This document shows positions 1,957 through 5,989 of a stretch of DNA of 5,989 bases, one piece after another (position 1 is the first letter of the stretch; each line of letters opens with the position of its first letter). Source of the DNA: a virus (taxonomy: Duplodnaviria; Heunggongvirae; Uroviricota; Caudoviricetes); the IMG/VR virus record IMGVR_UViG_2534682173_000012. The stretch is one strand, 5' to 3'. The translations under genes were made by a program, and so were the position numbers. The notes beneath the pieces are model-generated. The model saw only the letters and a program-made list of their open reading frames with translations. It was not told the origin of the DNA and ran no database searches.

Positions 1957-2556
1957 ATGCGTAAACTTTATGCCGCCATTTTGTCCGCAGCCATTTGTCT
2001 GGCCGTATCCGGTGCGCCTGCATGGGCGTCTGAACATCAGTCCACGCTGAGCGCGGGGTATCTTCATGCCTCGACGAACGTTCCCGGCAGCGATGATCTG
2101 AACGGGATTAACGTGAAATACCGTTATGAGTTTACGGACACACTGGGGATGGTGACGTCATTCAGCTATGCAGGAGACAAGAATCGCCAGCTGACCCGTT
2201 ACAGCGATACCCGCTGGCATGAAGATTCCGTGCGTAACCGCTGGTTCAGCGTGATGGCGGGGCCGTCTGTGCGCGTGAATGAATGGTTCAGCGCGTATGC
2301 GATGGCGGGTGTGGCTTACAGCCGTGTGTCGACTTTCTCCGGGGATTATCTCCGCGTAACTGACAACAAGGGGAAAACGCACGATGTGCTGACCGGAAGT
2401 GATGACGGTCGCCACAGCAACACGTCTCTGGCGTGGGGAGCTGGCGTGCAGTTTAACCCGACCGAATCCGTGGCCATTGATATTGCTTATGAAGGCTCCG
2501 GCAGTGGCGACTGGCGCACTGACGGTTTCATCGTGGGTGTCGGTTATAAGTTCTGA
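1957..2556 (+). CDS. lom: Lom outer-membrane protein (Ail/Lom/OmpX/PagC family 8-stranded beta-barrel), lambda-type moron
   Basis: 199-aa ORF: MRKLYAAILSAAICLAVSGAPAWA (signal peptide, likely cleaved after AWA) ...SEHQSTLSAGYLHAS...GFIVGVGYKF, ending in the aromatic C-terminal residue typical of outer-membrane beta-barrels. Matches my recollection of lambda Lom. Good RBS upstream; position between J and stf as in lambda. Confidence 0.93.
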   Translation: MRKLYAAILSAAICLAVSGAPAWASEHQSTLSAGYLHASTNVPGSDDLNGINVKYRYEFTDTLGMVTSFSYAGDKNRQLTRYSDTRWHEDSVRNRWFSVMAGPSVRVNEWFSAYAMAGVAYSRVSTFSGDYLRVTDNKGKTHDVLTGSDDGRHSNTSLAWGAGVQFNPTESVAIDIAYEGSGSGDWRTDGFIVGVGYKF

Positions 2557-2582
2557 TTAGCCAGGTAACACAGTGTTATGAC

Positions 2583-2610
2583 AGCCCGCCGGTTCAGGCG
2601 GGCTTTTTTG
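2583..2610 (+). terminator. Rho-independent terminator downstream of lom
   Basis: Stem agcccgc (2583-2589), 8-nt loop, stem gcgggct (2598-2604), followed by TTTTTT (2604-2609). Confidence 0.75.
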
Positions 2611-2620
2611 TGGGGTGAAT

Positions 2621-5600
2621 ATGGCAGTAAAGATTTCAGGTGTACTGAAAGACGGCACAGGAAAACCGGTACAGAACTGCACAATCCAGCTGAAAGCAAA
2701 ACGTAACAGCACCACGGTGGTGGTGAACACGCTGGCCTCAGAAAATCCGGATGAAGCCGGGCGTTACAGCATGGACGTTGAGTACGGTCAGTACAGCGTT
2801 ATTCTGTTGGTGGAAGGATTCCCGCCGTCACATGCCGGGACCATCACCGTGTATGAAGATTCTCAACCCGGTACGCTGAATGATTTTCTCGGTGCCATGA
2901 CGGAGGATGATGCCCGTCCGGAGGCACTGCGCCGTTTTGAACTGATGGTGGAAGAGGTGGCGCGTAACGCGTCCGTAGTGGCACAGAACACGGCAGCCGC
3001 GAAGAAGTCAGCCGGCGATGCCGGCACATCTGCCCGTGAGGCGGCAACCCATGCGACTGATGCTGCAGGCTCAGCACGCGCAGCCAGCACGTCAGCCGGA
3101 CAGGCCGCTTCGTCGGCTCAGTCAGCGTCTTCCAGCGCAGGAACGGCATCAACAAAGGCCACTGAAGCCTCAAAAAGTGCTGCCGCTGCAGAGTCCTCAA
3201 AAAGCGCGGCAGCTACCAGTGCCGGTGCGGCGAAAACGTCAGAAACGAATGCTGCAGCGTCACAACAATCAGCAGCCACTTCTGCATCCACCGCGACCAC
3301 GAAAGCGTCAGAAGCTGCCACCTCAGCCCGGGATGCGTCGGCTTCAAAAGAGGCAGCGAAATCATCAGAAACGAACGCATCCTCGAGCGCCAGTAGCGCA
3401 GCTTCCTCGGCAACGGCGGCAGGCAATTCCGCGAAGGCGGCAAAAACGTCCGAGACGAACGCCAGGTCTTCTGAGACGGCAGCGGGACAGAGCGCCTCAG
3501 CTGCGGCAGGCTCAAAAACAGCGGCTGCGTCGTCTGCCAGTGCCGCGTCAACAAGTGCCGGGCAGGCCTCAGCCAGTGCCACCGCCGCCGGAAAATCGGC
3601 AGAAAGTGCTGCATCGTCCGCTTCAACAGCCACAACGAAGGCTGGCGAAGCCGCTGTACAGGCCAGCGCAGCAGCGAGGTCTGCTTCCGCAGCGAAGACA
3701 TCCGAAACGAATGCGAAAGCGTCGGAAACCCGTGCAGAATCCTCAAAAACGGCAGCCGCATCGTCCGCCAGTTCGGCAGCGTCATCGGCATCATCTGCGT
3801 CTGCTTCAAAAGATGAGGCGACCAGACAGGCGTCAGCAGCGAAGGGCAGCGCCACGACGGCATCCACGAAAGCAACAGAGGCGGCAGGCAGTGCGACGGC
3901 GGCATCTCAGAGCAAAACTACTGCTGAATCCGCTGCGACCCGTGCGGAAGCTGCTGCTGATCGTGCTGAAGAGATTGCCGGTGCAGTTGCGATGGAAGAC
4001 GCAAGCCTTACAACTAAAGGTGTTGTGAAACTTAGCAGTGCTGTTGATAGCACCAGTGAATCGCTGGCGGCAACGCCAAAGGCAGTAAAATCAGCCTATG
4101 ACAATGCAGAGAAACGTCTGCAGAAAGACCAGAACGGCGCTGATATACCCGATAAGGGACGCTTCCTGAACAACATTAACGCGGTCAGTAAAACAGACTT
4201 TGCTGATAAGCGTGGTATGCGTTATGTGCGGGTTAACGCTCCTGCAGGTGCAACATCTGGAAAATATTACCCTGTTGTTGTTATGCGTTCTGCTGGCTCA
4301 GTAAGCGAACTGGCATCAAGGGTCATTATCACCACGGCAACGCGACCCGCAGGCGATCCGATGAATAACTGCGAGTTTAACGGATTTGTTATGCCTGGTG
4401 GCTGGACTGACAGGGGGCGTTATGCTTATGGAATGTTCTGGCAATATCAAAACAATGAACGAGCCATCCACTCAATAATGATGAGTAATAAGGGCGATGA
4501 TTTGCGCTCTGTGTTCTATGTTGATGGCGCTGCTTTCCCTGTTTTTGCGTTTATCGAAGATGGCCTGTCAATATCCGCACCTGGTGCTGATCTCGTTGTT
4601 AATGATACGACCTATAAGTTTGGGGCAACAAATCCGGCGACTGAATGTATCGCGGCGGACGTTATCCTTGATTTTAAGAGTGGGCGTGGTTTTTATGAGT
4701 CTCATTCGTTAATCGTTAACGATAACTTGTCGTGCAAAAAACTTTTTGCCACAGACGAAATTGTAGCGCGTGGTGGTAATCAGATTCGAATGATAGGTGG
4801 GGAGTATGGGGCATTATGGCGTAATGATGGCGCTAAAACTTACCTGCTGCTTACCAATCAAGGTGATGTTTATGGTGGCTGGAATACATTAAGACCGTTT
4901 GCTATTGATAACGCAACCGGCGAACTGGTTATTGGAACCAAACTGTCCGCAAGTCTGAACGGTAATGCATTAACAGCAACAAAGCTGCAAACGCCAAGAC
5001 GGGTTTCTGGTGTTGAGTTTGATGGTTCCAAAGATATTACTTTAACCGCCGCGCATGTGGCTGCTTTTGCCAGAAGGGCAACGGATACATATGCCGATGC
5101 GGATGGTGGCGTTCCCTGGAATGCCGAATCAGGCGCTTACAATGTCACCCGCTCTGGCGACAGCTATATTCTGGTTAACTTCTATACCGGAGTCGGAAGT
5201 TGCCGGACCCTGCAGATGAAGGCGCATTACAGAAATGGTGGTCTGTTCTACCGTTCTTCAAGAGATGGCTATGGTTTTGAGGAAGACTGGGCAGAAGTTT
5301 ATACCTCGAAAAATCTTCCACCAGAAAGCTACCCAGTCGGCGCACCAATCCCGTGGCCATCAGATACCGTTCCGTCTGGTTATGCCCTGATGCAGGGGCA
5401 GACTTTTGACAAATCTGCCTACCCGAAACTTGCTGCCGCTTATCCGTCAGGCGTGATCCCTGATTTGCGTGGCTGGACGATTAAGGGCAAGCCCGCCAGT
5501 GGTCGTGCCGTATTGTCTCAGGAACAGGACGGCATAAAATCGCATACCCACAGCGCCAGCGCATCCAGTACGGATTTGGGGACGAAAACCACATCGTCGT

Positions 5601-5989
5601 TTGATTACGGCACTAAATCCACGAATAACACTGGTGCGCATACCCATAGTTTAAGTGGCAGCACGAATGCAGCTGGTAATCACAGCCATAGAGATGGCCG
5701 TCGATTTAACCCCAGTGTTTTTAAAGATACTTATCAATATGGTTATACAAGCTCAGGTCAAAATACCTGGGGTGTACAAGGCTCAGTAGGTATGTCTACG
5801 GGGTGGTTAGCGAATACCAGTACAGATGGTAATCATAGCCATTCACTGTCCGGCACAGCAGCATCTGCAGGTGCACACGCGCATACTGTCGGTATTGGTG
5901 CTCATACGCACTCCGTTGCGATTGGTTCACATGGACACACCATCACCGTTAACGCTGCTGGTAACGCGGAAAACACCGTCAAAAACATC
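2621..5989 (+). CDS. stf: Side tail fibre protein Stf, 3'-partial (no stop before window end; at least 1123 codons)
   Basis: Hand translation of frame 2 from ATG 2621 has no stop through 5989, and the ORF track (which lists only ATG-to-stop ORFs) shows no frame-2 ORF here, consistent with that. N-terminus [62 protein letters not shown] matches the lambdoid Stf N-terminus as I recall it. Later come [20 protein letters not shown], a tail-collar-like segment ([50 protein letters not shown]) and repeated H-x-H motifs. Weak SD (gggg) 5 nt upstream of the ATG. Confidence 0.9.
2990..3990 (+). repeat. GC-rich low-complexity region of stf encoding an Ala/Ser/Thr-rich shaft with degenerate internal repeats
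   Basis: About 330 codons that are almost entirely A/S/T/K/E/G. The motif AAK(T/S)SETNA recurs four times (nt about 3228-3263, 3353-3385, 3431-3470, 3690-3730). Codon periodicity (GCN/TCN/ACN) creates long spurious ORFs in other frames and on the opposite strand. Confidence 0.6.

Follow-up and report, generated by a model that had tools for sequence, protein, structure and literature searches.

The tail-fibre junction considered here was described in 1992-94. Mosaicism among the tail fibres lambda Stf, P2 gpH, Mu S and P1 S is said to have been reported by Haggard-Ljungquist et al. in 1992, Sandmeier et al. in 1992, Sandmeier in 1994, and Hendrix & Duda in 1992. In this classical mosaicism, phages without relationship to each other carry the same motif, and the sequence next to it, on one side or on both, is unrelated; the locus described below shows no essential difference from it. 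The motif corresponds to the Pfam family PF03406 (IPR005068), the 'Pf2' domain of Ghosh et al. 2012, who noted that little is known of its structure or function and did not discuss a role in recombination (PMC3368898).

We analysed a stretch of 5,989 nucleotides (IMG/VR record IMGVR_UViG_2534682173_000012), hereafter designated the window. It carries the lambdoid gene order J - lom - stf, with J remnants at nt 2-1843, lom at nt 1957-2556 and stf from nt 2621, and the RefSeq annotations of matching regions concur with this order and label the regions matching the window stf as stfR. In two close relatives, locus L013 and the K-12 Rac prophage, tfa comes next after stf. On the + strand, frame 2 is free of stops from nt 2582 up to the end of the window, and stf, which begins with the ATG at nt 2621, comprises 1123 codons and is 3'-incomplete, running past the window end about 10 codons short of its stop. 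A whole-protein Pfam scan of the window Stf found PF08400, Gp34_trimer, Collar and PF03335 repeats, and PHROG tail-fibre families also matched. The PF08400 N-terminus is found in the window fibre as in the family-defining proteins lambda Stf, StfR and EHEC prophage fibres (PMC3368898). Both PF08400 and the gene order being present, the window Stf is a lambdoid side tail fibre of the Stf/StfR kind. The gene is composed of the following parts:

2621..5989, + strand: stf, side tail fibre gene of the Rac StfR type (open frame 2, ATG at 2621, Pfam domains, stfR identity)
2621..3022, + strand: prophage tail fibre N-terminal domain, the tail-attaching part (PF08400, E=6e-72, residues 1-134)
3023..4003, + strand: Ala/Ser/Thr-rich, GC-rich shaft (38% Ala, 24% Ser, 12% Thr; GC2 0.80, GC3 0.49)
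3871..4061, + strand: patch divergent from K-12 stfR, the left-hand parental segment (binned identity, informative sites)
4004..4126, + strand: PF03406 Phage_fiber_2 repeat in a single copy (hmmscan E=2e-20, model positions 1-41 of 42)
4061..4069, + strand: mapped crossover interval, the S-L-A codons of ESLAAT (informative-site switch)
4091..4177, + strand: conserved tail of the terminal repeat, in which the majority of the right edges (4102-4181) lie (P2-like matches, HSP edges, P2 variant and Mu S)
4160..4185, + strand: position homologous to Mu gixL and the G-segment boundary, the site itself being absent here (Mu S alignment, pattern search)
4181..5297, + strand: exchangeable distal module, cluster DN0 (99-100% to K-12 stfR; other modules take its place in 8 downstream clusters)
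4607..4906, + strand: Gp34_trimer-like segment inside the distal module (PF21446, E=3e-27)
5298..5351, + strand: second edge cluster, where the tail Collar domain begins (left edges: 5298, 5330, 5339, 5351)
5339..5482, + strand: Pfam Collar (residues 907-954)
5659..5833, + strand: short hypervariable patch in the His-x-His repeat region, third edge cluster (HSP edges; PF03335 repeats)

The composition of the shaft also gives rise, as a by-product, to long overlapping ORFs in other reading frames and on the opposite strand, at nt 3018-4028 (+), 3118-3867 (-) and 3213-3905 (-).

An earlier note on this DNA had placed a conserved tail-fibre motif at nt 4006-4120 of stf. The peptide is present at that place, as 38 amino acids encoded in frame 2 by nt 4007-4120 (LSSAVDS from nt 4031). 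The start given was one base ahead of the first codon (the frame from 4006 has stops), and the end at 4120 is correct for the peptide, but the conserved block made up of the motif and its tail goes about 60 nt further, to ~nt 4180. When a 77-aa fragment was compared with Pfam, PF03406 was matched practically at full length at nt 4004-4126, with 72.6 bits, far over the curated gathering threshold of 22 bits. This family was missing from the list of the whole-protein scan and was recovered by the fragment scan only; absence from a full-length scan list is therefore no evidence in such cases, and the family is easily overlooked. The motif was found by tblastn in 302 phage records, including lambda orf-401, P2 H, Mu S, S of P1 and P7, HP1 and fibres of Stx phages, and a PDB sequence search aligned the motif region to Mu S residues 105-172. 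The kinship to the motif of P2 gpH-, Mu S- and lambda Stf-type fibres, which the earlier note had named, was thus confirmed by both the Pfam match and the direct matches.

The block separates the Ala/Ser-rich shaft from the distal part, which is exchangeable and binds the receptor. In the alignment columns, the first eight residues of the core LAATPKAVK (nt 4064-4090) are invariant and the last K nearly so, and the peptide core is near-invariant across lambda-Stf-, P2-gpH- and Mu-S-type fibres. At the motif, otherwise unrelated genes share an in-frame island of ~100-130 nt with 75-95% nucleotide identity. P2-like phages match the window only at nt 4049-4173 (88-90% at the nucleotide level), and both Mu S and a P2 variant have the conserved tail behind their last repeat copy. 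In distant comparisons, the amino acid is kept in 30-31 of 33 codons, and the number of shared codons (15 vs 12.9 expected) is near random; in the islands of P2 proper, 31 of 37 codons are shared against 15.5 expected. On these codon comparisons, selection on the motif acts at the peptide level. The 77-aa block was also used for a homologue search, which yielded 40 fragments for the alignment, all of them short and most on contigs of 240-390 nt. An AF2 monomer of the block, computed with a 27-sequence alignment, reached a pLDDT of 58 and a pTM of 0.23, with a helix over one 15-residue stretch only; the repeat may act as a structural connector, the monomer model being a poor one. In the Mu cryo-EM study, modelling of S was reportedly confined to the N-terminus and a separate C-terminal crystal structure was fitted, and the motif region probably lies outside the structural coverage of Mu S.

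The window Stf contains one AAT.KAV core, and TRF detected no tandem repeat in the window. Among the relatives, one copy was counted in 157 ORFs, two in 45, three in 12, four in 7 and five in 2, and the number shifts by whole units of 44 aa (132 nt). P2 H has two copies in NC_001895 and four in a variant. When loci with two copies were compared with the one-copy window, HSPs stopped at nt 4102 and resumed at nt 4049. PF03406 being a tandem-repeat family with 1-5 copies in relatives, the single copy in the window is inside the family range, though without tandem copies.

The window's own allele changes parent within the motif. Overall, the window is 95.8% identical to K-12 stfR (b1372) over nt 2367-5659. 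Nevertheless, the identity in 30-nt bins is 53-70% at nt 3930-4049 and 99-100% from nt 4080. The reverse pattern was found against two other loci (L054 and L001), which are ~100% identical to the window in the patch at nt 3871-4061. Of 59 informative sites in this patch, 57 are of the L054 type, the last at nt 4061, and those at nt 4069-4260 are of the stfR type, except for nt 4160, which fits neither parent. Thus, the allele changes parent between nt 4061 and 4069, being phage-plasmid-type to the left and K-12 stfR-type to the right; with three sequences only, the recombinant at this position may be any of the three lineages compared. The allele of the patch was also found in the phages CMS-2020a, phi458 and Cyrano. 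The window stf is a three-part mosaic: its N-terminus and shaft are StfR-like, the patch that follows is of the phage-plasmid type, and the distal part is again of the StfR type. The receptor specificity of its product should be predicted only from the part after nt 4080.

To locate breakpoints among relatives, we used 80 IMG/VR loci picked by the N-terminal 134 aa only and not by the motif. The first loss of DNA similarity fell inside nt 4007-4183 in 49 of the 56 loci in which it was not cut off by a contig end (one more was at nt 4006), figures to be read with HSP edges as approximate breakpoints only and many loci of common ancestry; the independent events are nearer 8-10 than 49. Breaks in nt 4007-4183 lead to 8 distinct downstream sequence clusters, and 9 of the 14 distinct break positions lie within this 5.4% of the gene (binomial 6e-9). 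In a motif-anchored set of loci, left edges heap at nt 4049, 4057 and 4058 and right edges at nt 4102-4181; in a spread sample of E. coli genomes, right ends were found at nt 4090-4179. As judged from these alignments, similarity starts or stops inside the motif island far more often than elsewhere in the gene. The left edges at nt 5298-5351 come from the N-anchored and motif-anchored sets, and the third edge cluster (right edges at nt 5658-5676, left edges at nt 5818-5851) is found in all three locus sets. Part of the clustering could reflect selection for viable chimeras and not a preference of the recombination machinery.

The distal parts recur behind proximal parts of different fibre types. 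Each of three distal clusters (DN0, DN1 and DN2) was found behind both the lambda-Stf shaft (U0) and the P2-gpH N-terminus (U1), and a fourth (DN3) behind P2-type (U1) and Mu-type (U3) N-termini. A recent transfer is indicated by a lambda-type locus (L045) and a P2-type locus (L051), which share 1276 nt at 97.4% identity, beginning within the motif; the upstream part of the latter is 73% identical to P2. From nt 4049 onward, another P2-type locus (L031) is 87% identical to the window. The tracts over which the window is exactly identical to P2-type genes are short (median 17 nt, maximum 38 nt). Fibres of the siphovirus type and of the myovirus type have whole distal modules in common, and the boundary of these modules lies inside the island. 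The earlier note had interpreted the motif as a module boundary and recombination joint, at which homologues should show an abrupt drop of identity and not uniform similarity. Such a drop was found, clustered in nt 4007-4183, and similarity across the motif was not uniform; together with the distal modules joined to unrelated proximal parts and the parent switch at nt 4061-4069, the 49 of 56 first breaks uphold this interpretation.

We consider it very probable that nt 4004-4126 represent one PF03406 repeat of a Rac StfR-type fibre and are a natural junction for distal-module exchange. Joints would be formed by homologous recombination within the island, mediated by RecA or by phage annealases of the Red/RecT type, and the repeat number would be changed by unequal crossing-over between tandem copies. 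If the repeat is a self-contained structural connector, recombinants would survive, any proximal part could carry any distal part plus the matching assembly chaperone, and the outcome of module exchange would be host-range switching. Recombination between lambda and Rac stfR occurs on 88%-identical DNA via Red-beta or RecA (PMC3945230). Against this reading, De Paepe et al. sequenced 12 lambda x Rac recombinants and saw no hotspot in the region that they tested, 703 bp of 88% identity (PMC3945230). It is also possible, though we regard this as doubtful, that nucleotide similarity of the PF03406 core across lineages is upheld by repeated gene conversion, that the core is a homology-guided annealase hotspot and that the copy number (1-5) is a spacer tunable via unequal crossing-over. 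What suggests this possibility is that more synonymous codons than expected are shared in some comparisons of lambda with P2, namely the islands of P2 proper mentioned above. If it is true, synonymous recoding of ~60 nt should sharply cut natural host-range switching.

Other explanations of the junction were weighed against the exchange of modules by homologous recombination. One would take the boundary as compositional, the result of an insertion of foreign DNA with another base composition, and the earlier note had likewise pointed to a switch of composition at the motif. The drop of GC is real, from ~0.61 to ~0.47 across nt 3980 (0.60-0.62 in 60-nt windows up to nt 3979 and 0.45-0.52 from nt 3980). 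Nevertheless, the step sits in the second codon position (GC2 0.80 in the shaft vs 0.41-0.51 downstream), because of the Ala/Ser/Thr make-up of the shaft (74% for the three residues), and the third position changes little (GC3 0.49 vs 0.42-0.45, a difference of 0.04-0.07 only). In addition, it is located at the shaft end, at ~nt 3980, and not at the mapped crossover at nt 4061-4069. The switch of composition is thus an amino-acid effect of the shaft, which lends little support to a joint, and the GC step is no independent evidence of a joint or of foreign origin; as a sign of the latter, it was dropped after the split into GC1, GC2 and GC3. An insertion of foreign DNA is accordingly very improbable. 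Distal exchange may alternatively be attributed to Din-family invertases (Gin, Cin, Pin) acting at crossover sites in fibre genes, with the motif merely adjacent; invertase-mediated exchange of fibre modules was reportedly proposed by Sandmeier. Mu gixL (TTATCCAAAACCTCGGTTTACAGGAA) and the G-segment boundary, at S codon 170, lie 30 residues past the motif AVK, at a position homologous to window nt ~4175 where some HSP edges (nt 4173-4181) are also found, and in K-12 Rac pinR is located just downstream of stfR-tfaR. Nevertheless, the crossover core AAACCNNGGTTT has no match in the window at up to 2 mismatches and was found in none of the 80 motif-anchored loci, in which no close Gin homologue was found either, the only hits being four loci at ~35% identity; in Mu, the AAACC..GGTTT cores of the 26-bp crossover sites were found at the expected places. 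Moreover, the mapped crossover is ~100 nt upstream of the gix-equivalent position, most HSP edges lie at nt 4049-4107 and not at 4175, and the cix site of P7 is ~210 residues past the repeats. The invertase hypothesis is largely refuted for the window locus, and we regard it as quite unlikely.

The remaining two alternatives concern why the motif is conserved. The motif might be kept for structure only, with illegitimate joints arising gene-wide and only those at domain boundaries giving working fibres, so that the clustering reflects survivorship. The near-randomised synonymous sites in distant comparisons, which place conservation at the peptide level, the short exact identity tracts to P2-type genes and the other edge clusters at domain starts (e.g. 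nt 5339, the Collar start) are all in favour of this explanation. It is nonetheless unlikely, as (i) all joints examined are in register, without indels and inside the nucleotide-similar island, (ii) the repeat number changes in whole units, (iii) the parent switches inside the most nucleotide-conserved 50 nt, and (iv) lambda takes up prophage stf DNA by homologous recombination, illegitimate events being below detection (PMC3945230). Finally, the conserved nucleotides might constitute an element that functions as RNA or as DNA (e.g. a structured mRNA segment or a protein-binding site), instead of or besides encoding the peptide. The predicted RNA fold of nt 3990-4190 is somewhat stabler than those of shuffled sequences (z = -2.1; 2 of 200 shuffles as stable), but the motif region has no match in Rfam, no Chi site and no - strand ORF of at least 50 aa overlapping the motif, and distant homologues retain the amino acids with nearly random third positions. 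We therefore assign hardly any probability to such an element.

Among the closest described systems is the K-12 Rac StfR (b1372), which shares with the window the lom-then-stf order, the length class and the single motif copy. The two differ in the 190-nt patch (nt 3871-4061) ending inside the motif, which is replaced by another allele in the window; furthermore, lomR of Rac is split by IS5, whereas lom is intact and J is damaged in the window. In Mu S, the residues 105-172 around the Sc/Sv boundary correspond to window nt ~3980-4183, and the G-segment boundary is at the 3' end of the block. However, Mu carries gixL and a Gin-invertible G segment, and neither a gix-type site nor an invertase was seen within the window; unlike the programmed switch of Mu, the exchange at the window junction is evolutionary. 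In the Salmonella phage BIS20, an Eganvirus (186-like), a tail-fibre recombination hotspot has been described, conservation being reported for the initial 789 bp of the gene and no relationship for the remainder (PMC8986868). We located the motif block of BIS20 at gene nt 652-813, and the conserved 789 bp thus end inside it; the fibre is P2-type, and the motif was not identified in that study (PMC8986868).

The junction phenomenon is already known, and the current understanding is unchanged. The present analysis contributes a quantified distribution of breakpoints and, for one allele, a crossover mapped at base level, and its practical value for the window is annotation. The junction governs the re-assortment of receptor-binding modules in temperate coliphages and prophages, and thereby host range. 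It is also a site for building working chimeric fibres, of use in phage therapy and for DNA-delivery particles. A working lambda-P2 fibre was obtained by Brodel et al. (Nature 2024), who fused residues 1-393 of lambda Stf with the part of P2 H that begins at residue 251 (PMC11338833). When we checked the positions in the sequences, both fusion points were 8 residues past the motif AVK, which is aa 383-385 in lambda orf-401. The lambda Stf tail following AVK in the chimera, VVMDETNRK, differs from the tail of the window; the engineered lambda-P2 fusion point is nonetheless the natural junction.

The genes in the window are the distal tail genes of a lambdoid prophage, laid out as follows.

nt 2-1843: 3' part of J, split over three frames
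nt 1957-2556: lom
nt 2621 (ATG) to past the end of the window: stf, the side tail fibre gene, 1123 codons
nt 4004-4126, inside stf: the PF03406 repeat, hereafter the motif

Matching regions of E. coli genomes are labelled stfR, host specificity protein J and Lom in RefSeq, and a comparison of stf with PHROGs returned tail-fibre families and nothing else. In Pfam, Stf residues 1-134 match the prophage tail-fibre N-terminal domain (PF08400); a Gp34_trimer-like segment, the tail Collar domain and His-x-His repeats were also recognised. Over nt 2367-5659 the DNA is 95.8% identical to the Rac-prophage stfR of K-12. Of 5426 complete E. coli genomes, 3884 have a match to nt 3400-4800 (99.6% in strain SE11), and none matches the window as a whole above 97.9%. 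J appears to be a pseudogene: relative to three loci with an intact J (L013, L002 and L048), nt 1040-1860 have lost 1 nt near 1072 and 65 nt at 1400/1401 and carry a perfect tandem duplication of 95 nt (1666-1760 = 1761-1855, 100% identical). Other frames of the stf shaft contain long overlapping ORFs of 230-336 aa (3018-4028, plus strand, frame 3; 3118-3867 and 3213-3905, minus strand), which are most simply by-products of GC-rich repetitive coding sequence; in lambda, orf206b is annotated on the opposite strand of this Ala/Ser-rich shaft region.

The peptide that an earlier note had singled out as a conserved tail-fibre junction motif is indeed present, in frame 2 at nt 4007-4120, its start having been placed one base early. 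A 77-aa fragment matched PF03406 (Phage_fiber_2) with E = 2e-20 and 72.6 bits (cut-off 22) over model positions 1-41 of 42; the Pfam scan of the whole protein did not pick up this family. tblastn with the block hit 302 phage records, including lambda orf-401, P2 H, Mu S, the constant part of P1 and P7 S, HP1 and Stx phages, and a PDB sequence search aligned it to Mu S residues 105-172, bearing out the kinship with lambda, P2 and Mu fibres that the note had pointed to. The unit is a 44-residue tandem repeat in P2 H, canonical P2 having two copies and one variant four. Among 223 fibre ORFs collected, 157 have one copy, 45 two, 12 three, seven four and two five. A conserved tail follows the last copy; since the window carries this tail too, the conserved block reaches ~nt 4180, ~60 nt beyond the end (4120) that the motif had been given. 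An alignment of 27 sequences has K, G, L, A, S, S, E and LAATPKAV as its invariant positions. Structural modelling of the block (AF2 monomer) gave a poor model. Ghosh et al. describe a globular bead set between stalks (PMC3368898), and in a Mu cryo-EM study S is reportedly modelled at its N-terminus only, with a separate C-terminus crystal structure fitted. The 40 database proteins retrieved with the block (P0001-P0040) are mostly partial ORFs from contigs of just 240-390 nt, evidently because short-read assemblies break at a multi-copy repeat, and some are misleadingly named 'short-chain fatty acid transporter' or 'shikimate transporter'.

With the N-terminal 134 residues alone as bait, 80 IMG/VR loci were fetched free of ascertainment on the motif, and the first break was taken as the earliest point at which a locus loses collinear DNA similarity to the window. 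In 56 loci this break is unaffected by contig ends, and 49 of the 56 breaks lie inside nt 4007-4183, which is the abrupt loss of identity among homologues that a module boundary, as proposed in the note, should produce. One more falls at 4006, and the sole other first break between 2621 and 5047 is at 4524. Counted as distinct positions, nine of 14 lie within 5.4% of the gene (binomial, 6e-9), and the breaks open into eight distinct downstream sequence clusters. Among 80 motif-anchored loci, left edges concentrate at 4049, 4057 and 4058, whereas right edges do so at 4102-4181; the same right ends (4090-4179) recur in E. coli genomes sampled widely, and the match of P2-like phages to the window is restricted to nt 4049-4173 (88-90%). 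Two further edge clusters in stf look like additional module boundaries, one at 5298-5351, at the start of the Collar domain (Pfam Collar from nt 5339), and the other flanking a ~165-nt hypervariable patch (5659-5833) in the His-x-His repeat region. The match to the window begins at nt 3154 (85-96%, nothing upstream) in the ~108 kb phages CMS-2020a and Cyrano and in the related loci L001 and L054, indicating a further joint within the Ala/Ser shaft; it ends at nt 4107 in all of these except L001, in which it reaches 4479.

The allele in the window itself changes parent within the motif. Compared with K-12 stfR, identity is 90-100% up to ~3900, 53-70% in 30-nt bins over nt 3930-4049 and 100% from 4080; compared with L054 and L001, it is ~100% up to 4079 and then 73-78% or absent. 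The patch of these two loci is common to phages CMS-2020a, phi458 and Cyrano. At sites where L054 differs from stfR, the window agrees with L054 at 57 of 59 between 3871 and 4061, and with stfR at all sites from 4069 to 4260 except one, which fits neither. This places the switch at nt 4061-4069, within the S-L-A codons of ESLAAT, where the invariant core begins. Judged from these sites, the allele is probably a recombinant at the motif, in line with the joint postulated there. The switch from GC-rich shaft to lower GC, which had been cited in favour of that joint, is real. Nevertheless, it is carried by the second codon position (GC2 0.80 in the shaft and 0.41-0.51 downstream; GC3 changes little, from 0.49 to 0.42-0.45), and is thus an effect of amino-acid composition, the shaft being 38% Ala, 24% Ser and 12% Thr. 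The step is the end of the shaft at ~nt 3980 and lends no independent support to a recombination joint.

Separate clustering of the 150 residues that precede the first repeat and the 200 that follow the conserved tail showed distal clusters DN0, DN1 and DN2 each behind both the lambda-Stf shaft and the P2-gpH N-terminus, and DN3 behind both P2-type and Mu-type N-termini. L045, a lambda-type locus resembling the window up to the motif, and L051, a P2-type locus preceded by P2-like baseplate genes (73%), have 1276 nt in common at 97.4%, starting inside the motif. From nt 4049 on, the P2-type gene of L031 matches the window at 87%.

Several loci have other arrangements. L086 and L110 (module DN4) combine the lambda-type shaft and motif with a different conserved fibre segment (…ALNTLNELAAALGNDPNF…DILAK…VIEYLGLQETVNRARNAV…) that is followed by a Mu Sv-like module beginning precisely at the Mu gixL-encoded peptide (LGLQE); P7 before cix is arranged likewise. 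L022 and L023 (nt 3377-6046), from a phage with different upstream genes, encode an 890-aa fibre in which a J-derived segment (window nt 909-1445, 97%) is joined to the distal half of Stf ~20 nt upstream of the motif, just before …IASAVALEDAS…, and then matches window nt 4058-5658 at 98%. A truncated stf in L028 and L029 (98.6% to window nt 4049-5989) starts within the linker between repeats (…NGKYTAQDATTAQKG…), with a Rac-type spanin gene and trkG immediately upstream, and looks like a deletion with its end point in the repeat array. In three retrieved proteins (P0013, P0018 and P0020; alignment A1), …NGADIPD runs straight into the His-x-His repeats of the C-terminus and the final …NIAFNYIVRLA; the distal module, from window nt ~4150 to ~5900, appears wholly deleted.

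The breaks cluster, the modules reassort and the joints are in register: all joints examined are in frame without indels, and copy number shifts by whole units. This favours homologous recombination in an island of nucleotide similarity as the way in which the joints may form. HSPs to two-copy loci stop at 4102 and resume at 4049, the pattern that unequal crossing-over in the core would leave between single- and two-copy forms. In the experiments of De Paepe et al., lambda took up Rac stfR DNA via Red-beta or RecA where the two sequences are 88% identical, and illegitimate recombination stayed below the detection limit (PMC3945230). Runs of perfect identity shared by the window's block and P2-type genes are short, with a median of 17 nt and a maximum of 38 nt, and homologous events in the island should therefore be rare. 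In distant comparisons the amino acid is retained in 30-31 of 33 codons with codon sharing near random, and conservation of the block is mainly at the peptide level; some lambda-P2 pairs share 31 of 37 codons (15.5 expected), implying recent exchange of the island itself.

The main alternative is Sandmeier's invertase model, in which distal modules are swapped by site-specific recombination. The Mu G-segment boundary and gixL, at S codon 170, do coincide with the 3' end of the same block (window ~nt 4175). However, a gix-type core is absent from the window even at two mismatches and from all 80 related loci, the mapped crossover lies ~100 nt upstream of the gix-equivalent position, and the P7 cix site is ~210 residues beyond the repeats. 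Pure survivorship, with random joints filtered by function, may contribute, although it fits in-register, homology-embedded joints less well than homologous recombination does. An RNA or DNA element at the motif is unlikely, given the randomised third positions, a weak fold z-score and the lack of any Rfam hit or Chi site.

The motif is a curated Pfam family, and the papers of 1992-94 on horizontal tail-fibre gene transfer were reportedly based on its occurrence in unrelated phages with unrelated flanks. The junction finding is correct and already known; the base-level crossover of the window's allele and the quantified edge distribution add confirmatory detail. The junction is already in use for engineering: lambda Stf 1-393 fused to P2 H from residue 251 gives a functional fibre (PMC11338833), which shows that it tolerates swaps, and both fusion points, checked on the sequences, lie eight residues past the AVK of the motif. 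A hotspot has been reported at the equivalent place in 186-like phages, where the BIS20 fibre gene is conserved over its first 789 bp (PMC8986868); that conservation stops inside the motif block.
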